From: Thermoanaerobaculia bacterium
GTDB lineage: Bacteria > Acidobacteriota > Thermoanaerobaculia > Multivoradales > UBA5704
Assembly: GCA_036380715.1 (NCBI GenBank)
Contig: DASVEF010000299.1
Span: 7,520 to 71,519, forward strand
Direction of reading: 5' to 3'
Length of the DNA: 64,000 bases
Position numbers and translations under genes: made by a program. Positions within the stretch are counted from its first letter, which is position 1. Each line of letters opens with the position of its first letter. The notes beneath the pieces are model-generated. The model had not been told where the DNA came from. It worked only from the letters and a program-made list of their open reading frames with translations, and ran no database searches. Below, piece by piece: positions 2,751-19,820 of this stretch.

Positions 2751-4406
2751 ATGGAAACGCTGCTCGACCTGCTCCTCGGCAACTCGCTCACCCGGCTGGT
2801 CTTCTTCCCCGCGGTGGCGTGCCTGCCGCTGCTCTTCTTCCCGCGCGGCTCGGACCGCCCGGTCAAGATCTACGTGCTGATCGTCTCCCTGATCGAGTGC
2901 GCGTTCGGCCTCCAGTACCTCTTGACGCACCTGGGACCGGACGGCGCGTTCCCCGTGGTCCGCGACCTCGGGCCGGGCGGGGCGAAGATCCCGTGGATCC
3001 CAGGCCTCGGCATCCATTACGACCTGGCCATGGACGGCATCTCCATGCCACTGGTCCTGCTCGGGATCTTCCTGGTGCCGATCGTGCTCCTCGGCTCGTG
3101 GGTCGGCATCGAGCGCCACTGGCGGGCGTTCGGCGCGGCCCTGCTGCTGCTCACCACGGGCGTGCTCGGAGCCCTGCTCGCCTGGGACCTCTTCCTCTTC
3201 TACATCTTCTGGGAGGTCATGCTGATCCCGATGTACCTGCTGATCGGGGTCTGGGGCGGCGAGCGGCGGATCTACGCGGCGGTCAAGTTCTTCCTCTACA
3301 CCATGGCCGGCAGCCTGCTGATGCTGATCGCCATCCTGTGGATGGCGTGGACGTTCCACAATTTGAACGGCGGCGTCTGGAGCTTCGCGTACGAGGACAT
3401 GCTGCGGCTCCAGTTCCCGGTGCAGCAGCAGATCTGGCTGTTCGCGGCCTTCGCGCTGACCTTCGCGATCAAGGTGCCGATGTTCCCCTTCCACACCTGG
3501 CTGCCGGACGCCCACGTGGAGGCGCCGACCGGCGGCTCGGTGATCCTGGCCGGCATCCTGCTGAAGCTCGGCACCTACGGCTTCCTGCGCTTCGCCCTGC
3601 CGCTCTTCCCGCAGGCGAGCGAGGTGGCGCAGCCGCTGCTGGTGACGCTGGCGGTGATCGGCATCCTGTACGGTGCCCTGGTCGCCTGGGTACAGACCGA
3701 CATGAAGAAGCTGGTGGCCTACTCGTCGATCGCCCACCTCGGCTTCGTGATGCTGGGCATCCTGTCCTTCGACCTGGTCGCCTGGCAGGGCGCGCTGCTC
3801 CAGATGGTCAACCACGGCCTGTCCACGGGCGCGCTGTTCCTCCTCGTCGGCATGCTCTACGACCGCCGGCACACCAAGAAGTTCGAGGAGTTCGGCGGCC
3901 TCGCCAAGGTGATCCCGCTGTTCGCCTTCTTCCTGGTCTTCTCCACCCTGGCCTCGGTGGGCCTGCCGATGCTCAACGGCTTCGTAGGCGAGTTCATGAT
4001 CCTGGCCGGGAGCTACCGCGCGCTGGGCTGGCCCGCGGCGCTGTCGACTCTCGGCGTGGTGCTCGCCGCGCTCTACCTGATGAAGATGCTCCAGCTCACC
4101 ATCTGGGGACCTCTGACCAAGGAAGAGAACCGCGGGCTCCGCGACCTGACGGGGCGCGAGATCGCGGCGCTGGTGCCGCTCTGCGTGCTCATGCTGTGGA
4201 TCGGCGTGGCGCCGAACCCGTTCCTCAAGCCGAGCCTGCCGGCGCTGGATGCGACGCTCGCGGAGTTCAGGCAGGGGTTGGAACGGACGGAGGTGGCGGA
4301 GGCGACGCTGGCCCCTCACCCCCCGGCCCCCTCTCCCACCCCCTCCCTGCCATCCGGGAGAGGGGGAGAAAAATCTGCAATGGCCATGACGGGGGTTGGG
4401 CGATGA
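2751..4406 (+). CDS. nuoM: NADH-quinone oxidoreductase subunit M; C-terminal ~30 aa derived from a MITE/REP-like element
   Basis: NuoM/Mrp antiporter-like motifs (WLPDAHVEAPTGGSVILAGILLKLGTYGF). The ORF stays open through the repeat element at 4312-4383, giving the tail PHPPAPSPTPSLPSGRGGEK. ATGA overlap with nuoN. Confidence 0.88.
   Translation: METLLDLLLGNSLTRLVFFPAVACLPLLFFPRGSDRPVKIYVLIVSLIECAFGLQYLLTHLGPDGAFPVVRDLGPGGAKIPWIPGLGIHYDLAMDGISMPLVLLGIFLVPIVLLGSWVGIERHWRAFGAALLLLTTGVLGALLAWDLFLFYIFWEVMLIPMYLLIGVWGGERRIYAAVKFFLYTMAGSLLMLIAILWMAWTFHNLNGGVWSFAYEDMLRLQFPVQQQIWLFAAFALTFAIKVPMFPFHTWLPDAHVEAPTGGSVILAGILLKLGTYGFLRFALPLFPQASEVAQPLLVTLAVIGILYGALVAWVQTDMKKLVAYSSIAHLGFVMLGILSFDLVAWQGALLQMVNHGLSTGALFLLVGMLYDRRHTKKFEEFGGLAKVIPLFAFFLVFSTLASVGLPMLNGFVGEFMILAGSYRALGWPAALSTLGVVLAALYLMKMLQLTIWGPLTKEENRGLRDLTGREIAALVPLCVLMLWIGVAPNPFLKPSLPALDATLAEFRQGLERTEVAEATLAPHPPAPSPTPSLPSGRGGEKSAMAMTGVGR
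4312..4383. repeat. MITE/REP-like element, copy E (half element) inside the nuoM 3' end
   Basis: cccctcaccccccggccccctctcccaccccctccctgccatccgggagagggggagaaaaatctgcaatgg. Confidence 0.7.
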
Positions 4407-6950: not shown

Positions 6951-8581
6951 AAGGTACCCCTATGACCTTACGATTATCCCGCCGCCGCGCTATGCAAACG
7001 ACACTGTCTGCCGCCGCGGTAGCCACCCTGCCCCGTGACCGCGCCGTCGCCCGTCAGTCGACACCGATCGTGGTCAACGAGGCGATGATTACTCCTGACC
7101 AGGTCGAGGCCGCCCTGCCCAAACTTGACGGCCTGCTCGAGGACGCGATGATGCGTACCGGCGTGCCCGGCGCGGCTGTCGCCGTCGTCTACGACGACGC
7201 GGTCGTCTACGAGCGGGCCTTTGGCGTCCGCGAGGTGGGCAAACCCGATGCGGTCACGCCGGAGACGGTATTTCAGCTCGCCTCGATGTCCAAGTCGATC
7301 TCCTCGACACTGGTCGCCGCGGTGGTCGGCGACGGCGCCACGACCTGGGACGCTGTGGCGGCCGACCTACTCCCCGGGTTCGCGCTATCCGATCCATGGT
7401 TGAGCGCCCAGGTCACCCTGCGCGACCTCTTCAGCCACCGCTCCGGACTGCCGGCCTATGCCGGGGACGGCCTGACCTCGACCTTCGGGTACGGGCGCGA
7501 GGAGAGCGTGCGCCGGCTGCGCTATGTGCCACCTGCAACCTCGCTTCGTACGTCCTTCGCCTACGCGAACCTGCCACTTTCCGTCGCGGCCTACGCGGTG
7601 GCCATGGCAACCGGACAGACCTGGGAGGACCTCGCCGATGAGCGGCTGTTCGCACCGCTCGGGATGGCCACCTCCAGCTACCGTCTTGCTGACTACGTGG
7701 GCCGGACAAACAAGGCCGCCCCGCACTACCGAACGCGAGACGGCGTCTGGCCCCTGGGCGAAGTCACCGACGCCGACGCCTCGTCGCCGGCAGGCGGGGT
7801 CAGCACCACCGTGCAGGACCTGACACGCTGGATGCGGCTGCAATTGGGCGGTGGAGTGTTCGAGGGGGCTGAGGTGGTGGCCAGCGCGCCGCTGCTTGAG
7901 ACCCGCAGACCGCAGATCCTCGCGGGATCGCCGCCGAATCCGGCGGATGGGCCGGCGTTGTTCTACGGGCTGGGCTGGTACCTGCAGTACGACGAGCGGG
8001 GCCGTCTCCTCATGCACCACATCGGCGATTTCAACAGCGGCTTCCGGACAGGGGTGAGTCTGCTGCCCGCCGCCGGACTTGGCATCGTGGTGCTGAGCAA
8101 TGCCTGGCCCAACTCGCTTTCGGACGCGATTCCCAAGGCGTTCTTCGAGGTCGTCGAGCGGGGCGAACCGACCGAGGACTGGATCGGCATCTTCGAGGCC
8201 CAAACCGCTGAGGCGCTGGCCGCGGTGAGCGCCGCTGCACCATTCCCTCGGGGTGACGCGCCCGCCGACGGACCGCCGCTGTCGCTTGATGCCTACACCG
8301 GTTCTTACACCAACGAGTTGTACGGCGATATTACCGTTCGGGAAGAGAACGGCGGCCTCGTGCTGGAATTCGGACCGCTACCGTCCCAGCTCGAGTTGGA
8401 ACACTGGGACCGAGACGTGTTCACGTTTCCGCTCCCGCCAAGCGGCGAAGTGCTGCTGGGCAAACTCGGCGTGCAGTTCATGATCGGGCCATCCAGGAAG
8501 GCAACGACAGCAGCGCTGGGGCTACCGACAGTAGGTCCAGACGCAAACGCGCTCTTCACCCGGATGGAGTCCGAGGGATGA
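6947..8581 (+). CDS. Beta-lactamase-family serine hydrolase with Tat signal peptide and C-terminal extension domain
   Basis: Twin-arginine signal (LSRRRAMQTTLSAAAVATLP). SxxK active-site motif (ASMSKSISS). AmpC/PBP4/esterase-like fold length plus a ~150-aa C-terminal domain. Confidence 0.8.
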   Translation: MKGTPMTLRLSRRRAMQTTLSAAAVATLPRDRAVARQSTPIVVNEAMITPDQVEAALPKLDGLLEDAMMRTGVPGAAVAVVYDDAVVYERAFGVREVGKPDAVTPETVFQLASMSKSISSTLVAAVVGDGATTWDAVAADLLPGFALSDPWLSAQVTLRDLFSHRSGLPAYAGDGLTSTFGYGREESVRRLRYVPPATSLRTSFAYANLPLSVAAYAVAMATGQTWEDLADERLFAPLGMATSSYRLADYVGRTNKAAPHYRTRDGVWPLGEVTDADASSPAGGVSTTVQDLTRWMRLQLGGGVFEGAEVVASAPLLETRRPQILAGSPPNPADGPALFYGLGWYLQYDERGRLLMHHIGDFNSGFRTGVSLLPAAGLGIVVLSNAWPNSLSDAIPKAFFEVVERGEPTEDWIGIFEAQTAEALAAVSAAAPFPRGDAPADGPPLSLDAYTGSYTNELYGDITVREENGGLVLEFGPLPSQLELEHWDRDVFTFPLPPSGEVLLGKLGVQFMIGPSRKATTAALGLPTVGPDANALFTRMESEG

Positions 8582-8685
8582 CAGGCGCAGGACCTATCCA
8601 GGGCAACAGCGCGGGGCTATCTCGTACTTGGCCATCAACAGGGAGCAAGCCCCCCAAGGCTGGAATCTCGAAACGGAGAGCATGC

Positions 8686-8946
8686 ATGCATCGGATCCTA
8701 CAGGTGACCTTCGGCATCGCCTTGGTCCTGCTGCTCATAGCCCCCACCGGTATCCTTGCCACCGCGGCGGCTCCCTCGCCAGTCGCGGCCGTCGCCGCAT
8801 CCGAGATCGCCTGGCAGCCCTGTGCGACCGACCCGCTGCCCACCCAGGAGTGCGCCGAACTCGCAGTTCCCCTGGATTACGACGAGCCGGATGGGGCGTC
8901 GATCACCTTGGCCGTGGCGCAGGTTCCCGCGACTGACTTGGGATGA
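8686..8946 (+). pseudogene. 5' fragment of a secreted TAP-like alpha/beta hydrolase (S33 family), truncated
   Basis: Signal peptide plus EIAWQPCATDPLPTQECAELAVPLDYDEPDGASITLAVAQVPA, the typical N-terminus of tripeptidyl-aminopeptidase-like hydrolases. No catalytic domain follows. Immediately followed by a duplicated antitoxin tail. Confidence 0.5.
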
Positions 8947-8980
8947 AGTGAAGGCAGAACTCTGGCCTGAGCCGTCGTAG
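8935..8980 (+). repeat. Divergent second copy (~85% identical) of the antitoxin 3' end seen at 6698-6738
   Basis: gacttgggatgaagtgaaggcagaactctggcctgag here versus acctgggacgaagtcaaagcagagctctggcccgag at 6698. Both encode WDEVKAELWPE. Confidence 0.7.
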
Positions 8981-9006
8981 GGGCGCAGCATACTGCGCGC
9001 CCCTAC
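8977..9006. terminator. GC-rich hairpin between convergent genes
   Basis: gtaggggcgc-agcatact-gcgcgcccctac, a 10-12 bp perfect stem. Lies downstream of the minus-strand S51 peptidase gene. Confidence 0.4.
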
Positions 9007-9026
9007 GATCTCTGGAGGAGACGCGA

Positions 9027-10034
9027 TCAGTACGGGTTCTGGTCGATCACGCCGTTGTTGACGCTGCGCAGGTAGTAGCCGGTGCTCGGCCGGTTCCTCA
9101 GGTCGAAAGAGCCGCCGGAGGGGACTCTCCAGATCTTGTAGTTGGAGTAGGTCAGCGGCACGCCGGACCGGCAGACCTCCGGCGCATGATCGGCCAGCAC
9201 GAAGTAGGCAGGGCCGTCTCCCATCACGGTCGCCACGCCGTTGCGGTCCACGACCACCGAGGTCACCTCGTTCACAGCCACGGCGAGAGCGTTCGCGGCT
9301 TTGCCGTCCTGGATCTGCCGGGCGAGGAAGGCCATGGTCCGGCCCATGCGGTCGCGCTGCGCGAAATGGCTGTCGGTGATCGTCCCTTCCATGTTCGCCC
9401 AGTGGAAGAAGTCGTAGGTGAAGGTGATGGTCCGGTGGTAGGGATTGGCCAGGGCGTCGCTCGACACGGCGCTCCCCCGGCAGCCATCGTAGGTGAACTC
9501 GCCCTGGATCGCCGTGCCGGCGCTGGTCCCGCCGACGCCGCCTCCCTTGGCGTAGACAGATTCGACGGCGGTCTCCACCAGGGTCCCCTTGAAATAGTTG
9601 ACGTAGTTGCACTGGTCGCCGCCGGCGAAGAAGATCACCTCGGCGTTGCGCACCGTAGCTTCGACCGCGGCGGTGTTCGAGTCGCGGGCGCTGGTGATCA
9701 CCAGGGTCTCGACCGAGTCGACCCCGTTCATGGCGTAGATGTAGTCGTTGTAGCCGTTGGAGCCCGACGAGCGGAGGATGACGACGTCGACCGTGGTCGA
9801 GCAGCTCGTGCAGCCGCGGACCTGATCGATGATCCACTGGATCGCCGCGTCCACGTCCGTGCTGCCGCCGCCGAAGTCGTGGGCCGGGCCCGCCAGGACC
9901 GGGCTCACGTCCGCCGCGTTGCCCGTCAGATACCGTGTGACTTTGGCCTGGGCGGGGATCGCCACCAGGACTGCCAGCAAGACCAGGCAAAGAGCTGCTC
10001 TCCTCATCGGTTCCTCCTCTCGGAAAGACGACAT
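9027..10034 (-). CDS. Peptidase S51 family protein (cyanophycinase / dipeptidase E-like), secreted
   Basis: Signal peptide MRRAALCLVLLAVLVAIPAQA; the likely true start is the internal Met, making the gene end 10007. GGSAG-type serine nucleophile region (GGGVGGTSAGTAIQG). Type-1 glutamine-amidotransferase-like fold length. Confidence 0.7.
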   Translation of the reverse strand: MSSFREEEPMRRAALCLVLLAVLVAIPAQAKVTRYLTGNAADVSPVLAGPAHDFGGGSTDVDAAIQWIIDQVRGCTSCSTTVDVVILRSSGSNGYNDYIYAMNGVDSVETLVITSARDSNTAAVEATVRNAEVIFFAGGDQCNYVNYFKGTLVETAVESVYAKGGGVGGTSAGTAIQGEFTYDGCRGSAVSSDALANPYHRTITFTYDFFHWANMEGTITDSHFAQRDRMGRTMAFLARQIQDGKAANALAVAVNEVTSVVVDRNGVATVMGDGPAYFVLADHAPEVCRSGVPLTYSNYKIWRVPSGGSFDLRNRPSTGYYLRSVNNGVIDQNPY

Positions 10035-10098
10035 CCATCGCGCCGGGAGCCCGACACGCTCAGGCTCGCGGCAAGGGGTCTTACCTAGATGAGGTGCC

Positions 10099-10128
10099 GG
10101 ATCAGGCCGCTTTGCGAGCCCGCTGGGC
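10099..10128. repeat. 30-bp direct repeat, copy 1 (ggatcaggccgctttgcgagcccgctgggc)
   Basis: Identical copy at 10699-10728, exactly 600 bp downstream. Copy 2 forms the 3' end of the GT-C gene. Confidence 0.8.
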
Positions 10129-10371
10129 CGGGTTGGATGACTTGGGTTGCGGGCAGGCGCGAGCCCGCGCTAGGGAGGCGGAAAAATCCTCGAGACCTTC
10201 CAGGGACGCGGCGATGAAGGCTTCCGGAGCGATTTGGAGGGCTTCCGGCCGGTTTTGAGGAGGTGGGGCGGGTTTTTTACGGCCTCGGCCCGGTTTTTTC
10301 GGCTTCCAGGCGCGATTTTCCCGGGGGGAGGACGTTTTTCGGGCTAAATCCAGAAAAAACGGCCTGTACAG

Positions 10372-10572
10372 CGCCTGTGCTCGGATGCACAGCGGCTGTG
10401 CTCGCAGCGCAGGCGCTGTGTATCCGAGCGCAGAGGCTGTGTATGGGAGCGCAGGCGCTGAGTATGCGAGCGCAGGTGCTGTGCATCCGAGCGCAGGCGC
10501 TGTGTGTCCGAGCATAGCCGCTGAGTATCCGAGCACAGGCGCTGTGCATCGGAGCGCCAGGGCTGTGCAGGG
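10372..10572. repeat. 21-bp minisatellite, ~9.5 copies (consensus tgtgyatccgagcgcaggcgc)
   Basis: Read directly. In one frame it encodes a heptad A-V-x-P-S-A-G repeat. Embedded in a T-run-containing non-coding-looking block. Confidence 0.8.
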
Positions 10573-10698
10573 ACCCGCGCTCAGGACCTTTTTCCCAGAT
10601 GACGGATCCTCTGGCGCCTGCAAGATACCGGTCCACGGAAAGAACTTCCGGCCGCCGCCGGGGAATTCCCATCTATTGAGACCTCATCCCGTGGCGTC

Positions 10699-10728
10699 GG
10701 ATCAGGCCGCTTTGCGAGCCCGCTGGGC
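10699..10728. repeat. 30-bp direct repeat, copy 2
   Basis: Identical to 10099-10128. Confidence 0.8.
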
Positions 10729-12471
10729 TGTCAGCGTGAGCGGCCCCACCTTCATCGCGCCGGAGAAGGGGACGGCGAGGACGTAGAAGTCCTCCCCCGT
10801 CCGCCGGACCTCCCCCAGAGGCAGGGCGAGCCGGTTTCCCGGGAGCCCGGAGAGGACGAAGACGATCCGGCGGGTCGCGGCGGGCAGCTCGATCGTGCCC
10901 TGGACGCGCTGGAAGGGCCGGTGCGCCTGGGTGGCTTCCGCGAATCCCTGCTCCGGAACCAGGAAGACGAGAGGGTACTCCGGCAGATACCACTGCAGAT
11001 GCCGCTGCCATGGGCAGAGAAAGCCCTCCGCGCCGGACCCGCCGGTCCCGGACAACTCGACGGCCGCCAGGACGGTGTCCGCCGGGGACCAGGACCGGAT
11101 CGCCTCCAGGGTGCGATCCAGGCCGAGCTCGTACTCCGCGATCGTGCCCTGGTTGAATTCGTGGCGGACGATCGCCCAAGGCTTGGGCTGGTCGGGGCGC
11201 CGGTCGGCGCCGAAGAGGAAGAGGCCGGCTCCAACCATGGCGGCCACCGCGGTCGCGGCGAGCGCTCTGGGCCGGCTGGCGGCGAGGGCCGGAGCCGCGG
11301 CGAGGGCGAGGGCGGTCAGCAGGGCCGGCAGGTGGATCAGGGTGTAGCCGGCCTTGGTAATGTGGAACAGGGCGAAGAAGAGGACCGGCGGCAGCGCCCA
11401 GGCGAGGAGCCAGGAGAGCCGCGAGGCCAGGAGCCGCAGCCCGGGGAGGACCTGCCGGGGCGCGGTCGCCCAAACCAGGAGGAGCGCCACGGCTCCGGGG
11501 AAGATCCCCTGGAGCGCCCACTTCGTCAGGACCTCCACGTTGTGCGCGAGCGCTCCCCAGCCCGCGCCGTAGAGGACGGAAGTCTGCGGCAGCAGGGTTC
11601 CGAAATGCGCGGTGCTGATCCGCCGGTAGGCCCCGTAGCCGCCGGCCAGCAGGCAGAGCGGCACGAACCAGGCGAGGACGAGCGCAACGCCGAGCGCGGC
11701 GCCTCCAAAGAAGAGGCTGGGCGTCAGCCTCCCCCGCCGCCAGGTCCGGAAGAGGCCGAACAGAAACAGGGGGGCCAGGAGCACCAGGGTCGACTGGCGG
11801 AGCCCGCCGGCCACGGCCATCAGGGCGCAGGCCAGAAGAAAGGCCCGCCGGCTCTCGCTCATCCGCAGCGCTCCATAAGCGACGGCGACGCTCAATCCCC
11901 CTTCGAGGGCATAGATCAGCGGCAGCTCGCCGTAGAACCAGAGGAGGGGGTTGAAGGCGTATAGGACACCGGCGAAAGCGGCGGCCGGGACCCTCACCCC
12001 CTGGCCCCCTCTCCCATCCGCACTCCCGCCGCCCGGGAGAGGGGGAAACGCTCTCCGAGAGGCTCTTCCGAGCCAAGCGAAAATCTGCCTCCCCCCTCTC
12101 CCGGGAGGGTGTGAGTGCGGATGGGAGAGGGGGGCCGGGGGGGTGAGGGTCCCGGCCCGGCCCGTCAGCAAAACGATGCAGGCGGCTCCCAGGGCTCCTC
12201 CGAGGATCGCCAGGGCCACCATGCCGTGCAGGGGGTCGAGGCCGAGGGCGGCGAGGAGCTTCAGGATTCCGATGTAGAGAGGATAGCCGGGCGGGTGCGG
12301 ATGGTGGGCCGCGAGGTCGTACCGCTCCACGCCGAGAGCGAACTGGATGGAGTCGTGGTCCCACATCCGCCGGGCGGCGAAGGGGACGCGGATCAGGAGG
12401 GCGGCGACGGCCGACCCGAGCGCGATCCAGCGCAGGCGGGGGTCGGCCGTCATCGAGGGCTCGGAGCGCAA
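10702..12471 (-). CDS. GT-C fold membrane glycosyltransferase (PMT/ArnT family 39/83-like), with a MITE/REP-like element inserted in frame
   Basis: Polytopic protein with the N-terminal loop motif WDHDSIQFALGVERYDLAAHHPHPPGYPLY (D-x-D plus the aromatic/proline loop of GT-C enzymes). Residues ~110-165 (TPPAPLSHPHSHPPGRGGRQ...GGQGVR) are encoded by the repeat element at 11991-12149. Confidence 0.65.
   Translation of the reverse strand: MRSEPSMTADPRLRWIALGSAVAALLIRVPFAARRMWDHDSIQFALGVERYDLAAHHPHPPGYPLYIGILKLLAALGLDPLHGMVALAILGGALGAACIVLLTGRAGTLTPPAPLSHPHSHPPGRGGRQIFAWLGRASRRAFPPLPGGGSADGRGGQGVRVPAAAFAGVLYAFNPLLWFYGELPLIYALEGGLSVAVAYGALRMSESRRAFLLACALMAVAGGLRQSTLVLLAPLFLFGLFRTWRRGRLTPSLFFGGAALGVALVLAWFVPLCLLAGGYGAYRRISTAHFGTLLPQTSVLYGAGWGALAHNVEVLTKWALQGIFPGAVALLLVWATAPRQVLPGLRLLASRLSWLLAWALPPVLFFALFHITKAGYTLIHLPALLTALALAAAPALAASRPRALAATAVAAMVGAGLFLFGADRRPDQPKPWAIVRHEFNQGTIAEYELGLDRTLEAIRSWSPADTVLAAVELSGTGGSGAEGFLCPWQRHLQWYLPEYPLVFLVPEQGFAEATQAHRPFQRVQGTIELPAATRRIVFVLSGLPGNRLALPLGEVRRTGEDFYVLAVPFSGAMKVGPLTLTAQRARKAA
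11991..12149. repeat. MITE/REP-like nested palindromic element, copy D (full length, variant core)
   Basis: Termini ccctcaccccctggccccctctccc ... gggagaggggggccgggggggtgaggg. Inserted in frame in the GT-C gene. Confidence 0.75.
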
Positions 12472-12475
12472 CTGG

Positions 12476-13054
12476 CTACTGGCCGCCGCCGGCGCTCCAG
12501 GGCGGAACGATGCCGCTCATGCGGGCATAGGCGATCGACTGGCCGAGGTGCTCGTGCGCGTGGGTCGCGATCAGCATGAAACCCTCGCGGACCGTGCCAT
12601 CGTGGTCGAAGATCTTTATCGTCTTGTCGAGCTCGGCCTCGGGGGCCGTTTCGATGGCCTTGCGGGCGTGGTCGAACGACTTCTTGAGTGCATCGATCAC
12701 CTTGGCCTTGTCCGTGGAGGCCTTCTCAATGTTCCGCAGGTCGAGGCCCTCGGGTGGCTTGACGCCCCACAGGGTCGGCAGGAAGTAGTTGCCGCCGGCC
12801 ACGTGCAGGAACACCTCGCCGGTCGAGCGGACCTTGTCGTTGGGCTTCCACGAGTACTTCTCGGCGGGGGTCGCCTCGGCCAGGGCGATCAGCTTCTCCT
12901 GGGCGTCGCCGATCTGCCGCAGGATCTCGGCGCGAACGCCGGACCCGGGCTTAGCCGCAGCGGGCTGCTCGTCCGCCCGGGCCGGCGACGCCAGGACGGC
13001 GGTGAGTGCCAGGACCAAGGCGCAAGTGAGGGTGAGGCTGAGGGCTCGTTTCAT
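12476..13054 (-). CDS. DinB-family protein (DinB_2 four-helix bundle), secreted
   Basis: Start at MKRALSLTLTCALVLALTAVLASPARA (signal peptide). DinB-like HxxxH/E motif region (LIATHAHEHLGQSIAY). Confidence 0.7.
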   Translation of the reverse strand: MKRALSLTLTCALVLALTAVLASPARADEQPAAAKPGSGVRAEILRQIGDAQEKLIALAEATPAEKYSWKPNDKVRSTGEVFLHVAGGNYFLPTLWGVKPPEGLDLRNIEKASTDKAKVIDALKKSFDHARKAIETAPEAELDKTIKIFDHDGTVREGFMLIATHAHEHLGQSIAYARMSGIVPPWSAGGGQ

Positions 13055-13130
13055 CGTTGATCTCCTCGACGGGGAAAAAGGAACTGATCCCGCAGATCTT
13101 AGCGCTAGAATCGCGCCGGGGGTGAACCCG

Positions 13131-14441
13131 ATGATGCAGATGACCCTCGCCCTGCTGGCGAGCGTCGGAGCCTTCGCGCTCCTCATAGCCCTGATCGCCT
13201 GGCTGCAGCGCAAGTTCTTCCTGGTGCGGCAGCTCGCGTTCCCGCTCTACGTGGCGGCCGCGGCGGCCGGTCTGGAGGTCTTCATCCTGGTGATGCCGGG
13301 CTACAGGCCGGTGGAGCTCCACCGGGCGCTCGGCTGGCTGCTGCTCTTCTGCGGCCTCGCTCTGGTCCTGCGGCTGCTCGTGCTCTACCTGTTCGACGTC
13401 CACCTGTACGCGCAGAAGGGCGTCCGCCTTCCTCCCCTGCTCTCCGCGGTCACCATGGCCGTGATCTACCTGGTCACCGCGCTGATCACTCTGCGGCTGA
13501 CCATCCCCGGTCTGGACGTGACGCCCCTGGTGGCGACCAGCGCCGTCACCTCCCTGGTGCTCGGCCTCGCCTTGCAGCCGATCCTCTCCAACTTTTTCGC
13601 CGGCCTGGTGATCAGCGTGGAGCGGCCGTTCCGGATCAACGACTGGATCCGGATCGGCGACCAGGAGGGGCGGGTGGTCGCCATCACCTGGCGCACCACC
13701 CACCTGCGGACGCGCGACAACGACAACCTGGTCATCCCCAACGGCAAGCTCGCCGACGAGCGGGTGCTCAACTTCTACTACCCGCACCCGATGCACATGG
13801 AGCGGGTCAAGGTCGGGGCGGACTACAAGGTTCCGCCCTACCGGGTGCGCCGCGCCTTGCTGGAAGCGGTGCCGGGGGTCCAGGGCATCCTCGACAAGCC
13901 GAGCCCCGACATCTTCGTGCTCTCCTTCGACGAGAACGCCATCCTTTACGAGCTGCGGGTGTGGATCGAAGACATGGTTCAGGCACACCGGATCGCGAGC
14001 GACCTCAGAGGGCGCATCTGGGAGGAATTCAAGAAGGCGGGGATCACGATCCCGTACCCGATCCGCACGATCGAGCTGCCGCCCCGCCCCCGCAGACGCC
14101 CTCAAGCCGAGACCGGAGGAGGCCCGCGGCCGGCGCGGCTCTACGTGGCGGAGGGCCCCGAGCGCGGGCAGTCGCTCGATCTCGGCGGTCTTGACGGGGA
14201 GGCCACGACAGTGGGACGCTCTCGCGGTTGCTCGCTCTCGCTGAGCGAGCCGAACGCCAGCAAAGAGCACCTGAAGATCGAATGGAAGGACGGCGCCTGG
14301 CTGCTGACCGATCTGGAGAGCAGCTTCGGCACCCGGGTCAACGGCCAGCCCACGGCTCGCAAGGAGCTCGCGCCGCTCGACCGCATCTCGATCGGCGACA
14401 CGGTTATCATCTTCGAGAGCGATGCCCACGGACCTGCCTGA
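13131..14441 (+). CDS. Mechanosensitive channel MscS-family protein fused to a C-terminal FHA domain
   Basis: N-terminal TM helices plus the MscS beta-domain (FRINDWIRIGDQEGRVVAITWRTTHLRTRDNDNLVIPNGKL). The C-terminus has an FHA-like pattern (TTVGRSRGCSLSL...SKEHLKIEWKDGAWLLTDLESSFGTRVNGQP). Confidence 0.8.
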   Translation: MMQMTLALLASVGAFALLIALIAWLQRKFFLVRQLAFPLYVAAAAAGLEVFILVMPGYRPVELHRALGWLLLFCGLALVLRLLVLYLFDVHLYAQKGVRLPPLLSAVTMAVIYLVTALITLRLTIPGLDVTPLVATSAVTSLVLGLALQPILSNFFAGLVISVERPFRINDWIRIGDQEGRVVAITWRTTHLRTRDNDNLVIPNGKLADERVLNFYYPHPMHMERVKVGADYKVPPYRVRRALLEAVPGVQGILDKPSPDIFVLSFDENAILYELRVWIEDMVQAHRIASDLRGRIWEEFKKAGITIPYPIRTIELPPRPRRRPQAETGGGPRPARLYVAEGPERGQSLDLGGLDGEATTVGRSRGCSLSLSEPNASKEHLKIEWKDGAWLLTDLESSFGTRVNGQPTARKELAPLDRISIGDTVIIFESDAHGPA

Positions 14442-15351
14442 CTCCATCGGACCCTACCGCGTCAACGAGCTGATCGGCCGGGAGGGCCCCGCACTCCTCT
14501 ACCGCGCCTCCGCTCCAGGCGACGGACGGGCCGTGATCGTCCACCTTCTCTCCGCTCGCGTGGCCGAGGAGCGGGGTCTGCTGGAGCGCTTCCGGCGGGA
14601 GGCGGGAGCCCTGGCCCGGTCGAGCCATCCCAACCTCCTCAGGGTCCTGGAGATTGGCGAGGAGGGGGCTCGCCCGTTCATGGCGACCGAGCCGTTCGAC
14701 GGCGTCCCGCTCGACGAGGTGCTGAAGGGCCGGCAGCTTTCAGCGCCCGAGGCGATCAACGTGATGAAGGGGATCTGCCGCGGCCTGGCCCACGCTCATC
14801 AGCACGGCGTGGTCCACGGTCACGTCTGGCCCCATGCCGTCCTCGTCTCCCGGGACCTCTCCCAGGTGAAGCTGACCGACTTCGGCTTCGCTCGGGCCGA
14901 CTCGCTCGGCAAGACAGGTACCCTGAACACGGGCGCGCTCTCGCTCGGAGCCTTCCACTACCTGGCTCCGGAACAGGTCGATCAGAGGACCGGAGGGACA
15001 GCCGACCACCGGGCGGATCTCTACTCCGCGGGCGCGGTCTTCCACGAGATGCTGACCGGGCGGCCCCCCGGAGGGCGCTTCGCCCTGCCGAGCCAACTCA
15101 AAGCCGAGCTCACGCCGGATGCGGACGTGGTCGTCCTGAAATGCCTGGCCCGCAACCCGGGCGAGCGCTACGCGTCGGCGATCGACCTGCTGAACGATCT
15201 CGCGAGGCTCGAAGAGGCGATGCGGGTGCGCGTCCTCTCGGAATTCCAGGGCATCACCCGCCCCGGCTCGCGCAAGCGGGCGCTCCTCCTCGCCGGGCTG
15301 ATCCTCCTCCTCGCCGCACTGGCTGTGGCCGGCTTTTTCATCGCGCGCTGA
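14422..15351 (+). CDS. Ser/Thr protein kinase-like pseudokinase with C-terminal TM anchor
   Basis: Kinase fold retained (DFG in LTDFGFA, APE in YLAPEQ). The VAIK lysine is replaced (RAVIVHLL) and the HRD catalytic loop reads HGHVWPH. C-terminal helix LLLAGLILLLAALAVAGFFIA. 20-nt overlap with the MscS-FHA gene. Confidence 0.7.
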   Translation: MPTDLPDSIGPYRVNELIGREGPALLYRASAPGDGRAVIVHLLSARVAEERGLLERFRREAGALARSSHPNLLRVLEIGEEGARPFMATEPFDGVPLDEVLKGRQLSAPEAINVMKGICRGLAHAHQHGVVHGHVWPHAVLVSRDLSQVKLTDFGFARADSLGKTGTLNTGALSLGAFHYLAPEQVDQRTGGTADHRADLYSAGAVFHEMLTGRPPGGRFALPSQLKAELTPDADVVVLKCLARNPGERYASAIDLLNDLARLEEAMRVRVLSEFQGITRPGSRKRALLLAGLILLLAALAVAGFFIAR

Positions 15352-15404
15352 GGGGCTGCAGCTCTCTCGCCGGGAGCAAGCCGCTTCTGGCGGATAATGG
15401 CGCC

Positions 15405-16403
15405 ATGAGCTACCGCAATCTCGGCCAGACCGGTCTCAAGGTGTCGCCGCTCTGCCTGGGCGCGATGATGTTCGGCAAGTGGGGCAACCCCGATCACGAC
15501 GACTGCATCCGGATCATCCACCGGGCCCTGGAGGCCGGCGTCAACTTCATCGACACGGCCAACGGCTACTCCGAGGGGGAGTCAGAGGTCATCGTCGGCA
15601 AGGCGCTCCGGGGCCGCCGCGAGAAGGCCGTGCTCGCCACCAAGGTCTGGGCTCCCGTGGGCGAGGGGCCGAACGAGCGTGGCCTGTCGCGCAAGGCCAT
15701 CCAGGAGCAGGTCGAGAACAGCCTGCGCCACCTCGGCACCGATGTCATCGACCTGTACCAGATCCACCGTCCCGACCCCACGACCCCAGTGGAAGAGACC
15801 CTCTCCACCCTCAACGACCTGGTCCGCCAGGGCAAAGTCCGCTACATCGGCTGCTCCACCAACCACTACGAGGGCCAGGGACTGTGGGAGAAGCGCTTCT
15901 CCGCCTGGGAGATCGTCGAGACCCTGTGGATCAGCGAGCGCCGCGGCTGGGAGCGCTTCGTCTCCCTCCAGCCGCCGTACAGCATTCTGCGCCGCGTCAT
16001 GGAGCTGGAGCACTTCCCCATGTGCCAGCGCTTCGGCATCGCCAATATCGTCTGGAGCCCGCTCGAGGGGGGCTGGCTCACCGGCAAGTACCGCCGCGAC
16101 GCCGAGAATCCCATGGACAGCCAGCGCGCCCAGCACTGGATCGGCGACATCGACAATCCCAAGTTCCAGCGCCGCCTCGACATCGTCGAGCAGCTCGTGC
16201 CCATGGCCGAGGCCAAGGGGGTCTCGCTCGCCCGCTTCGCCAACGCCTGGGCGCTCCGCCACCCGGCGGTCACCTCGGTCATCATCGGACCGCGGACCCT
16301 GGAACAGCTCGAAGATAGCCTGGGAGCGCTGGAGGTCCAGGTCACTCCCGAAGAAGCGGCCCGGATCGACGAGTTGGTGCCGCCGGGGACCTCGGCGCTC
16401 TGA
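15405..16403 (+). CDS. Aldo/keto reductase
   Basis: MSYRNLGQTGLKVSPLCLGAMMFG...FIDTANGY...LYQIHRPD. Canonical AKR motifs. Confidence 0.85.
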   Translation: MSYRNLGQTGLKVSPLCLGAMMFGKWGNPDHDDCIRIIHRALEAGVNFIDTANGYSEGESEVIVGKALRGRREKAVLATKVWAPVGEGPNERGLSRKAIQEQVENSLRHLGTDVIDLYQIHRPDPTTPVEETLSTLNDLVRQGKVRYIGCSTNHYEGQGLWEKRFSAWEIVETLWISERRGWERFVSLQPPYSILRRVMELEHFPMCQRFGIANIVWSPLEGGWLTGKYRRDAENPMDSQRAQHWIGDIDNPKFQRRLDIVEQLVPMAEAKGVSLARFANAWALRHPAVTSVIIGPRTLEQLEDSLGALEVQVTPEEAARIDELVPPGTSAL

Positions 16404-17645: not shown

Positions 17646-19820
17646 TCAATTCAGCGGGGAGCGGCCGAGCAGGTGGCGCTCGAGCCAGGAGATTTCGGTG
17701 AAGAGCCGGGTCCGCTTGTGCGAGGGCTTGCGGAAGATGTGCCCCTCGCCCGGGTAGATCAGCAGCTCGACCGGCACGCCGCGCCAAGCCAGAGTGCGGT
17801 ACATCTCCTCGGCCTGCTCCGGGCCGTCGAATTCGCCGAACGTGATCAGCGTCGGCGTCTTCACCTGGCCGGCACGGCTGCTGGGCGACTCGTCCTGGTA
17901 GCGGGCAGGGTCCTCCCAGGGTGGCCGGCTCCGGTAGAAGCCTTCGGCCCAGAAAGCGCCCCGCGGGGAGCCGGCGACCATGGAGACGTCGTTCCAGCGC
18001 CCCGCCCCGGACACGGCGGCGCGGAACAGGCCGCTCCGGCCGATCAGGCAGTTCGTCAGCCCTCCCCCGCCGCTGTACCCCGTAACCCCCACCCGTTCGC
18101 GGTCCGCCCAGCCCAGGGCCAGCAGGTGCTCCACCCCGGCGATCACGTCAGCCGACGGACGCGAGCAGCGGTGGCCCTCCAAGGCCTGCCCGAAGGCGTC
18201 TCCCCGGCCGGCGCCGCCCCGGAAGTTCGGGGAGAGCACCAGGAATCCCCGGGAGGCCAGCAGGCCGGGATAGGAGGCGAAGCTCCCGCCCACGGACACG
18301 GTCTCCACGCGCGCCACGCCGAAGGGACCGCCATGGAGATGGACCACCAGCGGCAGCCCCTTCTCACCCTTGCGGCCCGGTGGCCAGAGGAGCACGCCCT
18401 CGATCGTGTCCCCCTCACGATTCTTCCAGGAGATCGTCTCCACCTCCGGCGCGGGATGGCGGTCGAGAGCCGCGTTGAAGCTCGTCAGCGCCCGCGCCGC
18501 CGCCATGCCGTCCGGCCCGTCCGCCAGCCAGATCTCGGGGAAACGCCGGTCGTAGCGCACGAAAGCGATCCTCCGCCCGTCCCGCGACGCCGTGAGCAAC
18601 TCGGTCATGCCACGGTGGTCGGCGAGGGTCTGAACCCGTCCGCTCGCGGGCTCGATCCGGTAGATCCGCGTCCGAGTCGAGACCAGGGCCGTCGCCAGGA
18701 TGGAGCCGCCGGCGAGGGGGACCGCCTCCAGGACGCTCCCCTCCAGATCCGGCGCGACCCGCGCGATCCCGCCGCCGGGCTCCACGCGATAGAGCCGTCC
18801 TTCGGTGGTGGTGAACCGTCCATCCCGCTCCTCCCCGGAGCCTGTGATCAGGAGGTCGCGGCCCGCCCAGAGCACCCGTTCCTCATAGACCCAGTTGCGG
18901 GTGCGCACCGGAGCGACCGCCTCCGGTCCCAGGGGCAGGACGGAGACCTCCCACTCCCTGACCGGGCCGTAGGGGCTCCCCGCTCCGAAGGCGATCCGGC
19001 CCCCGTCGGGAGAGAGATGGATGCTTCCCGGATTTGGCTCGGCCGATGCGAGGGGGACGGCGGTGCCCGTGGCGAAGTCGGCCCGGGCCAGCCGGTAGAG
19101 AGTGGTCCCGGGATCGGGGAGCTCGGGAAGGCGGCGGACGTCGCCGTAGATCCGGCGCCTCTCGCGGCCGGCCTGCAGCTCCGTGCCGGTCGGCGGGGTG
19201 ACGGCCGAGAGGACGACTCCCGAGCCGTCCGGCAGCCAGTCGTGGGAGAGGATCCCGGACTCGAAACGGGCGGGATCGGTCACCCGCCGCGGCCTACCCT
19301 CCAGTGGATCGAGGACCGAGAGCTGGGGCGCCTCCGGGGTGGAGAGGAACGACAGGAGCTTCCCGTCGGACGACCACCGGAGCTCCCGGAGGGCCGCCGG
19401 CTCGACGGCGAGGCGGACGGGCTTCGGCGCTCCGGGCGCCGCGAGGTCGATCCACCAGATGGCGTGCTCCTCCACGTCGCGGGCCGGGTCGTCCCTGCGA
19501 GCGATGAAGGCGAGCCGGTTGCCGTCCGGGGAGAGCGCGACCTCGAGGAAGGCGACCTCCGCGAGCCACTCTTCGATGGAATAGCCGGAGGCCGGAGGGA
19601 CGAGAGACAAGGCGGCGAGAAGGAGGGCCGCGAAGAGGACTGTCCTCGCCCGGGCGCGGCGCGGGCCCTCACCCCCGTCCCCTCTCCCGAAGGGAGAGGG
19701 GTGAAAGCTCTGGAAAAAGCTCAGAAGACCGCGATTTTCTCTGCAATTTCCCCCTCTCCCTCCGGGAGAGGGGGCCAGGGGGTGAGGGCTCAGCGGAACG
19801 GCCTTACGCCTTTGAAACAA
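17646..19820 (-). CDS. S9 family serine peptidase (prolyl oligopeptidase/DPP-like) with N-terminal TolB-like beta-propeller; start uncertain
   Basis: Catalytic Ser in GYSGGG; C-terminal alpha/beta hydrolase; beta-propeller repeats. The first ~55 codons of the ORF are a MITE/REP-like element (LSPHPLAPSPGGRGG...). The true start is probably near the signal peptide VLFAALLLAALSLVP, but no clean start codon was found. Confidence 0.75.
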   Translation of the reverse strand: MFQRRKAVPLSPHPLAPSPGGRGGNCRENRGLLSFFQSFHPSPFGRGDGGEGPRRARARTVLFAALLLAALSLVPPASGYSIEEWLAEVAFLEVALSPDGNRLAFIARRDDPARDVEEHAIWWIDLAAPGAPKPVRLAVEPAALRELRWSSDGKLLSFLSTPEAPQLSVLDPLEGRPRRVTDPARFESGILSHDWLPDGSGVVLSAVTPPTGTELQAGRERRRIYGDVRRLPELPDPGTTLYRLARADFATGTAVPLASAEPNPGSIHLSPDGGRIAFGAGSPYGPVREWEVSVLPLGPEAVAPVRTRNWVYEERVLWAGRDLLITGSGEERDGRFTTTEGRLYRVEPGGGIARVAPDLEGSVLEAVPLAGGSILATALVSTRTRIYRIEPASGRVQTLADHRGMTELLTASRDGRRIAFVRYDRRFPEIWLADGPDGMAAARALTSFNAALDRHPAPEVETISWKNREGDTIEGVLLWPPGRKGEKGLPLVVHLHGGPFGVARVETVSVGGSFASYPGLLASRGFLVLSPNFRGGAGRGDAFGQALEGHRCSRPSADVIAGVEHLLALGWADRERVGVTGYSGGGGLTNCLIGRSGLFRAAVSGAGRWNDVSMVAGSPRGAFWAEGFYRSRPPWEDPARYQDESPSSRAGQVKTPTLITFGEFDGPEQAEEMYRTLAWRGVPVELLIYPGEGHIFRKPSHKRTRLFTEISWLERHLLGRSPLN
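19666..19789. repeat. MITE/REP-like element, copy B (full length; reverse-complement orientation of copy A)
   Basis: ccctcacccccgtcccctctcccgaagggagaggggtgaaagctctggaaaaagctcagaagacc...ccctctccctccgggagagggggccagggggtgaggg. The core is near-identical to rc(copy A). Confidence 0.8.

Follow-up and report, generated by a model that had tools for sequence, protein, structure and literature searches.

The ABC transporter Rv1747, which bears two FHA domains, is encoded in an operon with the kinase PknF and is regulated by it (PMC3138270; PMC8339232). A comparable two-gene arrangement lies on the forward strand of a 64-kb stretch of Thermoanaerobaculia DNA (contig DASVEF010000299.1 of assembly GCA_036380715.1; GC ~68%), referred to here as the window, in whose positions coordinates are given. 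It comprises a gene for an MscS-family mechanosensitive channel fused to an FHA domain (MscS-FHA) and, overlapping its end, a gene for a protein that has the fold of a Ser/Thr kinase, lacks the catalytic residues and is anchored to the membrane by its C-terminus. Both arrangements join an FHA-fused membrane transport protein to a membrane-anchored protein of the Hanks kinase type, and the interaction between FHA domain and phosphothreonine (pThr) that regulates the transporter in Rv1747-PknF has a proposed counterpart in the window. However, Rv1747 is an exporter with N-terminal FHA domains and PknF is an active kinase phosphorylating the transporter's own linker, whereas the window module has an MscS core with a single C-terminal FHA domain, a partner devoid of catalytic residues and a linker without a conserved Thr.

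The logic proposed for the window module is best known from the mycobacterial MviN (MurJ) pseudokinase, which is phosphorylated by PknB and then recruits the FHA domain of FhaA, regulating the activity of the membrane protein (PMC12599244, family ActPs3). In the window, too, a pseudokinase would be phosphorylated in trans and an FHA domain recruited to it, but the parts are distributed differently: in MviN, transporter and pseudokinase are one protein and the FHA protein is another, whereas in the window it is the channel that carries the FHA domain and the pseudokinase that stands alone. In addition, ActPs3 proteins are devoid of the DFG Asp and many of them of the activation loop, both of which the window pseudokinase has. 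The docking step itself is exemplified by PknB and GarA, in which the activation-loop pThr of the kinase docks the FHA domain of its partner (PDB 6I2P; PMC8339232). PknB is the best match of the window pseudokinase in both sequence and fold, and its loop-to-FHA docking is the very interaction proposed here, with the difference that the kinase there, PknB, is active and its partner GarA a soluble regulator of metabolism.

Among channels, the nearest MscS relatives outside the FHA-bearing clades are the cyclic nucleotide-gated channels of bacteria (bCNG channels), bearing a regulatory ligand domain at the same C-terminal position (PMC13591265). That domain is cNMP_binding (PF00027) instead of FHA and no kinase partner accompanies it, whereas the window channel has no PF00027 match. 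Proteins of this type, ~500 aa long, match residues 1-320 of the query at 30-42% identity, and sequence comparison places the lineage of the window channel as the sister of the bCNG channels. The full MscS-FHA architecture is rare, being confined to about a dozen 50%-identity clusters in an exhaustive search of 1.84 billion representative proteins. In plants, the MscS-like channel MSL10 is said (in work ascribed to Veley and colleagues, 2014) to be regulated by phosphorylation of its N-terminus. It would thus be an MscS-family channel modulated by Ser/Thr phosphorylation, as proposed here, but a eukaryotic one that reportedly carries the phospho-sites on the channel itself and has neither an FHA domain nor a dedicated pseudokinase. 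No paper on the MscS-FHA architecture came up in a full-text literature search that combined MscS, or "mechanosensitive channel", with FHA, and a 2026 review of MscS-like gating mentions neither FHA domains nor phosphorylation nor kinases. The module of MscS-FHA channel and kinase or pseudokinase is real and conserved and appears to be undescribed, combining elements of known kinds.

The channel gene (13131-14441, + strand; 436 aa plus stop) starts with an ATG at 13131 and ends with a TGA at 14439-14441, and the pseudokinase gene (14422-15351, + strand; 309 aa plus stop) begins before the channel is terminated. The two open reading frames (ORFs) share 20 nt (14422-14441, + strand), which read ATGCCCACGGACCTGCCTGA, an arrangement indicative of translational coupling and already pointed out in the initial annotation of the locus. 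The genuine start of the pseudokinase is the ATG at 14422, as its N-terminus, MPxDxPxxIGPY, is kept in the orthologues, with M1, P6 and G10 invariant.

A scan for related loci with one genome per GTDB species yielded 451 loci encoding a relative. The best 80, all from Thermoanaerobaculia, Holophagales or other Acidobacteriota, were analysed, and in these the match spans the whole channel protein including the FHA domain. In total, 78 of them were informative, as the other two terminate right behind the channel gene, and 77 of the 78 encode a kinase-like protein directly downstream of the channel on the same strand. The stop/start junction is overlapping in 53 of these 77 loci, and the genes are spaced by 1-40 nt in 23; overlaps of 11 nt (23 loci) and 20 nt (14) are the most frequent, and junctions of -4 nt (5) and -14 nt (4) also occur. 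The association also holds in reverse. In a metagenome scan with the pseudokinase alignment, whose back-translated motifs proved to be generic kinase motifs, 6 of 80 loci were orthologous, and all six have MscS-FHA directly upstream. Channel and pseudokinase form a conserved two-gene, translationally coupled module and are presumably co-transcribed. A scan of positions 12900-15600 found no sigma-70-like promoter, and terminator-like hairpins were present only inside the 3' end of the pseudokinase ORF.

The sole exception, locus L002, has a 2.9-kb insertion (7296-10180 in that locus) that splits the MscS-FHA gene from the pseudokinase gene. The insertion holds a 548-aa ORF (7315-8961), alpha/beta hydrolase-like by eye, and a small ORF on the - strand (9151-9585). 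Just upstream of the pseudokinase start, the 3' end of the FHA region is present as a remnant copy ("LAPLDRVPVGDTV").

The fusion of an MscS channel to an FHA domain, as initially annotated, is confirmed by profile matches. The cytoplasmic beta-domain and alpha/beta domain (residues 151-307; 13581-14051, + strand) are matched by the Pfam families MS_channel_2nd (PF00924, residues 151-215, E 2.4e-22) and MS_channel_3rd (PF21082, residues 226-307, E 5.3e-09). With phmmer, the part aligning to YnaI/MscS chimeras is residues 7-313 (E 7.7e-25) and the part aligning to E. coli MscS is residues 103-314, the matches to MscS and YnaI structures ranging from E 1e-21 to 1e-25. The AlphaFold2 (AF2) model, with a predicted local distance difference test (pLDDT) score of 78, consists of five membrane helices, the MscS cytoplasmic domains, a disordered linker and a confident FHA beta-sandwich. 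The membrane part (residues 2-164; 13134-13622, + strand) is made up of helices 2-28, 36-54, 60-96, 102-124 and 131-164, the fifth of which is a pore helix of the TM3 type with the gate leucines within "TSLVLGLALQ". The E. coli MscS segment "GLAVGLALQ" pairs with "SLVLGLALQ" of the window protein, both gate leucines (L105 and L109 in E. coli) are conserved, and this gate-leucine segment of TM3a is nearly invariant across the channel orthologues. Profile, TM3 pore helix and gate leucines together assign the protein to the MscS family, and gating by tension is predicted. It is presumably a heptamer of the YnaI/MscS type, in which a flexible linker of ~20 residues and an FHA domain extend the cytoplasmic cage of each subunit. 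The linker (residues 311-329; 14061-14117, + strand) is rich in Pro, Arg and Gly, has a pLDDT below 50 and varies in sequence among the orthologues, and none of the aligned orthologues share a conserved phospho-acceptor Thr there in the style of Rv1747 or GarA. The channel protein matches P0001, which comes from a metagenome-assembled genome (MAG) and is annotated as [quoted passage not shown], at 100% identity.

The FHA domain (residues 335-430; 14133-14420, + strand) is matched by PF00498 over residues 359-422 (E 1.4e-13; 51.5 bits, the curated cut-off being 20.7) and also by PF16697 (E 6.5e-13), and its AF2 model is a beta-sandwich of 11 strands with a pLDDT of ~87-90. The pThr pocket is intact, with G362-R363, S377-x-x-H380, G400-T401 and N404-G405. 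In an alignment of 14 sequences with identities down to 34%, from clades 34-78% identical, the columns of G362, R363, S377, H380, G400 and T401 are invariant, and those of N404 and G405 are at least 90% conserved. The domain is therefore predicted to be able to bind pThr.

The second gene encodes a kinase-like domain (residues 12-266; 14455-15219, + strand) that matches the Pfam family Pkinase (PF00069) with E 3.9e-28 and 99 bits against a cut-off of 31.7. The best match in the PDB by sequence is M. tuberculosis PknB (E 1.4e-35). The AF2 model (mean pLDDT 83.4, predicted template modelling score 0.79) retrieved PknB, PknI and PknA as its top Foldseek matches, led by chain A of 6I2P (PknB; E 1.1e-18, target-normalised TM-score 0.73). 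Alignment with PknB verified what had been claimed of the catalytic site, namely the loss of the VAIK Lys and the HRD Asp with retention of DFG and APE. In strand beta3, VAVK of PknB is replaced by VIVH (residues 38-41; 14533-14544, + strand), with H41 at the position of the ATP-binding Lys. The Gly-loop GFGGMS is replaced by GREGPA, with a Glu at the second Gly of GxGxxG. In the catalytic loop (residues 132-139; 14815-14838, + strand), HRDVKPAN has become HGHVWPHA, the Asp being replaced by H134, the Lys by W136 and the metal-binding Asn by A139. The RFRREA segment of PknB is retained, with E60 as the alphaC Glu, and so are DFG (D153) and APE (182-184). The possibility that the catalytic residues are merely shifted in the alignment was ruled out, as the N-lobe contains no Lys at all (the first is K102) and the catalytic loop neither Asp nor Asn. 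The substitutions, for which alignment had been recommended as a check, are confirmed, and the FHA-like region of the channel scores above its profile cut-off.

The same picture was obtained in a set of 121 close orthologues including the query, the others being 56-94% identical to it. The beta3 Lys column is occupied by Arg in 65, Gln in 37, His in 17, Tyr in one and Lys in one. The HRD Asp column is His in 117 and Asp in none, and the catalytic-loop Asn column is Ala in 115. The structural residues are fixed, including the HRD His, the DFG Gly, APE, the alphaF Asp and the Arg of subdomain XI. Judged from these residues, the site appears catalytically dead and the kinase fold retained. The gene is maintained nevertheless, with intact ORFs in more than 120 protein clusters at 56-94% identity to the query; a rough ratio of non-synonymous to synonymous substitution rates (dN/dS) of 0.33-0.48 for the pseudokinase and 0.24-0.37 for the channel is indicative only, dS being probably saturated and biased by GC content at third codon positions. 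A C-terminal transmembrane (TM) helix, also part of the initial annotation, is seen in the AF2 model at residues 284-308 (15271-15345, + strand), and a hydrophobic C-terminus is conserved among orthologues of ~300-340 aa. Since only a single residue follows the helix, the protein is tail-anchored and has no ectodomain. The exact pseudokinase was absent from the protein-collection matches, the best of which is 94% identical, whereas the adjoining channel is present at 100%; in the annotation of the source MAG, the call for this overlapping gene may differ or be missing.

A role as an anti-phage kinase (PD-T4-6, MADS, BREX PglW) was considered and rejected, as the PADLOC and NCBIfam matches cover the generic kinase domain alone and score far below the cut-offs (MAD6, 112 bits against 460; PglW, 60 against 990). 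PADLOC gave no match for the channel, and no defence genes were found near the locus.

Seven families of bacterial pseudokinases have been described, termed ActPs1-3, GLW, CP1, DYD and DLHK (PMC12599244; bioRxiv 10.1101/2025.01.12.632604). ActPs3 proteins are fused to MviN and lack the DFG Asp, DYD proteins from Actinobacteria and Firmicutes carry Arg at beta3 and a DYD motif and lack the alphaC Glu, and CP1 and DLHK proteins are cytosolic with COG3899 or helicase domains (PMC12599244). The window pseudokinase is acidobacterial, tail-anchored and free-standing and retains both DFG and the alphaC Glu; it fits none of the seven, from which it is set apart by their published descriptions only. 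It would add a family to those described, and one that is unusual for a bacterial pseudokinase in that its predicted partner is clear and its role open to testing.

The origin of the pseudokinase can be traced in more distant MscS-FHA clades. In L084, of the P0248 clade, the downstream kinase overlaps the MscS-FHA gene by 11 nt and ends in a C-terminal TM helix like the window protein, but its motifs are canonical (GAGGMG, VAIK, HRDLKLSN, DFG). In L081 and L082, which are Glassbacteria-type loci, the gene immediately upstream of MscS-FHA encodes a canonical receptor kinase with a TM helix and a TPR ectodomain. The kinases of these three loci have in common with the window pseudokinase family-specific features, namely an N-terminal "xxIPxxIGxY" and a shortened "TGRxPxGRF(x)LPSQ" segment. 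Because the distant clades pair MscS-FHA with canonical kinases, the window pseudokinase is regarded as a descendant of the channel's own cognate active Ser/Thr kinase. The initial proposal of a phospho-signalling scaffold in place of an active kinase is accordingly upheld for the lineage of the window and does not extend to these distant clades. As a separate observation, L082 and L083, both of the Glassbacteria type, contain a second, plain MscS gene of 270 aa (3133-3945), divergent from the pair of kinase and MscS-FHA.

The catalytic residues of the partners were mapped onto a neighbour-joining tree of the channel proteins, in which the partners of the outgroups carry KE-HRD-K-N-DFG. On the basal Thermoanaerobaculia branches the catalytic-loop Lys alone is lost, the partner in L077 being otherwise near-canonical, and in L052, L062, L066, L067, L072 and L073 the Gly-loop is lost in addition. 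In the crown groups the HRD Asp is lost as well, replaced by S, N, H, G, A or R, and the partners of the window clade carry HE-HGH-W-A-DFG. The tree shows the catalytic residues being lost step by step towards the window clade. The replacements are varied in the wider family, with S, H, N, G, A, R or E at the Asp position, K, R, E, Q or H at the beta3 position and D, E, G or N at the DFG Asp, which speaks for relaxed selection on catalysis. The basal partners in L075-L080 are longer (545-704 aa) and continue behind the TM helix into a long C-terminal extension, whose C-terminal end is similar, by eye, to that of the TPR ectodomain in the kinases of the Glassbacteria type, a hint that truncation of a receptor kinase gave rise to the tail-anchored form. 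The series from active receptor kinase through tail-anchored kinase to pseudokinase represents a natural experiment in the change from kinase to scaffold, in which, if the proposed mechanism is true, the docking interaction was retained while catalysis decayed.

The activation segment of the pseudokinase from DFG to APE (residues 153-184; 14878-14973, + strand) contains T165, T167 and T170 in "TGTLNTGAL" and is the candidate phospho-site for FHA docking. T167 and T170 are invariant in all 121 close orthologues, and the T170 column is Thr in all 77 genome loci. The core motif is T-x-T-[LIV]-x-T-G-x-[LIV], so that L, I or V stands at T170+3, in agreement with the common FHA preference for pT-x-x-(I/L/V). 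Residues 160-174 have a pLDDT below 50 in the AF2 model and are predicted to be disordered.

On these grounds, a mechanism may be proposed in which the two proteins are made together and inserted into the same membrane, the pseudokinase being incapable of phosphorylation itself. An active Hanks kinase encoded elsewhere would phosphorylate T170 and/or T167 of the pseudokinase within the motif T-x-x-T-G-x-[L/I/V], and the FHA domains of the channel would bind the loop pThr, tethering pseudokinases to the cytoplasmic cage. Such tethering would alter the gating threshold, the inactivation or the clustering of the channel until a phosphatase resets the phosphorylated state, and the release of osmolytes could thereby be controlled by Ser/Thr phospho-signalling. 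The absence of a conserved Thr from the channel linker makes a ligand in trans likelier than self-binding of the GarA/Rv1747 type. Altogether, it is slightly better than an even chance that the dead kinase serves as a membrane-tethered phospho-acceptor or adaptor that is bound by the channel's FHA domains and tunes gating or clustering. The evidence for the anatomy and evolutionary history of the module is good, and what is inferred by reasoning is the regulation: the physical binding of pThr by the FHA domain, which kinase phosphorylates the loop and how the channel responds.

Bacterial MscS-like channels are usually regarded as tension-gated safety valves. Should the mechanism be true, the MscS superfamily would gain phosphorylation as a regulatory input, next to the cyclic nucleotides known from bCNG channels. 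It is plausible, though rated somewhat below an even chance, that the module represents the first bacterial mechanosensitive channel under, or feeding into, Ser/Thr phospho-control, with a co-translated pseudokinase as the pThr-bearing adaptor for seven FHA domains and a docking function that outlived catalysis.

Several points weigh against the adaptor mechanism. Within the 64-kb window, neither an active kinase nor another FHA or MscS protein is encoded, which leaves the phosphorylating enzyme hypothetical. A Thr in the activation loop is common in Hanks kinases for structural reasons, so its conservation is unspecific, and the hydrophobic +3 residue is not common to the outgroups with active kinases (T-R-D-K in L081; T-T-T-H-A-S in L084). 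The retained DFG Asp and alphaC Glu, together with the His at the HRD Asp position in 117 of the 121 orthologues, may leave room for a non-canonical activity. In addition, bCNG channels gave E. coli no protection from hypo-osmotic shock (PMC13591265), and the role of the window channel may therefore differ from classical osmoprotection.

The same components could also work in the reverse direction, with the channel as the sensor of tension and the pseudokinase as the output: a change in the cage or FHA domains would release or present the pseudokinase, which would then activate or inhibit an active Hanks kinase allosterically, for example by dimerising with it, turning mechanical stress into a phospho-signal. 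Pseudokinases often serve active kinases as allosteric partners (a general point that PMC12599244 discusses), the ancestral partner kinases were of the receptor type, with TPR ectodomains, so that the module began as a signalling unit, and a GGDEF-EAL signalling gene follows the pair in 25 related genomes. Yet this reversal, too, has no active kinase linked to the module within the window, and the conserved FHA pocket and loop Thr suit regulation of the channel equally well; it is considered unlikely, though it deserves to be kept in sight. The FHA pocket is also what tells against a constitutive auxiliary subunit, in which the FHA domain would bind the pseudokinase or another ligand independently of phosphorylation. 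Phospho-independent FHA interactions are known, the tight translational coupling suggests stoichiometric co-assembly, and window and neighbour scans revealed no kinase or phosphatase linked to the locus (no PP2C-directed search was made). However, the pThr-contacting G-R, S-x-x-H and N-G residues do not vary even between clades of only 34% identity, all the pseudokinase lineages among them. This is difficult to account for if selection does not act on pThr binding, and a phosphorylation-independent subunit is accordingly held to be improbable.

Less probable still is a pseudokinase that retains a non-canonical catalysis through the DFG Asp, the alphaC Glu and His134, such as an atypical phosphotransfer or another nucleotide-dependent reaction, acting on the channel or on itself. 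D153 and E60 are indeed retained, the His at the HRD Asp position is conserved without drift in the close orthologues, and several "pseudokinases" have proved to be active or to bind ATP (PMC12599244; bioRxiv 10.1101/2025.01.12.632604). The N-lobe without a Lys, the Glu in the Gly-loop and the loss of the metal-binding Asn argue otherwise, as does the free variation of these positions in the wider family, which fits relaxed selection and not a new active site. That the two genes are mere neighbours is effectively excluded. A DinB-like gene upstream and an aldo-keto reductase gene downstream are likewise syntenic in many genomes, so the adjacency could reflect class-wide conservation of gene order; but such conservation would not account for the stop/start overlap in 53 of 77 loci or for an association that persists in distant clades with another gene order, the kinase being upstream. 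FHA domains and Hanks kinases are, moreover, established functional partners, and the reciprocal check was positive in six of six loci.

In the search for a third conserved component, alternative-frame ORFs, which these GC-rich genomes contain, interfered with all-vs-all ORF clustering in the 80 loci, and targeted tblastn was then used. Apart from the GGDEF-EAL gene described below, it revealed class-wide synteny only, of a DinB_2 gene upstream and of the aldo-keto reductase gene downstream, which in the window (15405-16403) directly follows the pseudokinase. No signalling proteins were found by Pfam among the eight nearest neighbours. In 25 of the 80 loci a GGDEF-EAL (cyclic di-GMP) gene stands between the pseudokinase and the aldo-keto reductase (for instance L038, 8328-10394); it is absent from the window.

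Two kinds of repeats were observed elsewhere in the window. Two 36-nt direct repeats (10093-10128 and 10693-10728), 94% identical, flank a 600-nt unit that contains a 21-nt tandem array (10406-10567, ~7.7 copies) and an inverted half (10363-10404). The right-hand repeat overlaps the 3' end of a TMEM260-like gene (10702-12471, - strand), and the whole unit (10093-10728) looks like an inserted repeat element with a target duplication. In addition, GC-rich palindromic elements of ~150 nt lie at 11983-12157, inside the TMEM260-like ORF, and at 19656-19803, at the 5' end of an S9 peptidase ORF; comparison of the two sites shows 100% complementarity of the 25-nt arms, and the elements resemble repetitive extragenic palindromes (REP) or miniature inverted-repeat transposable elements (MITE).

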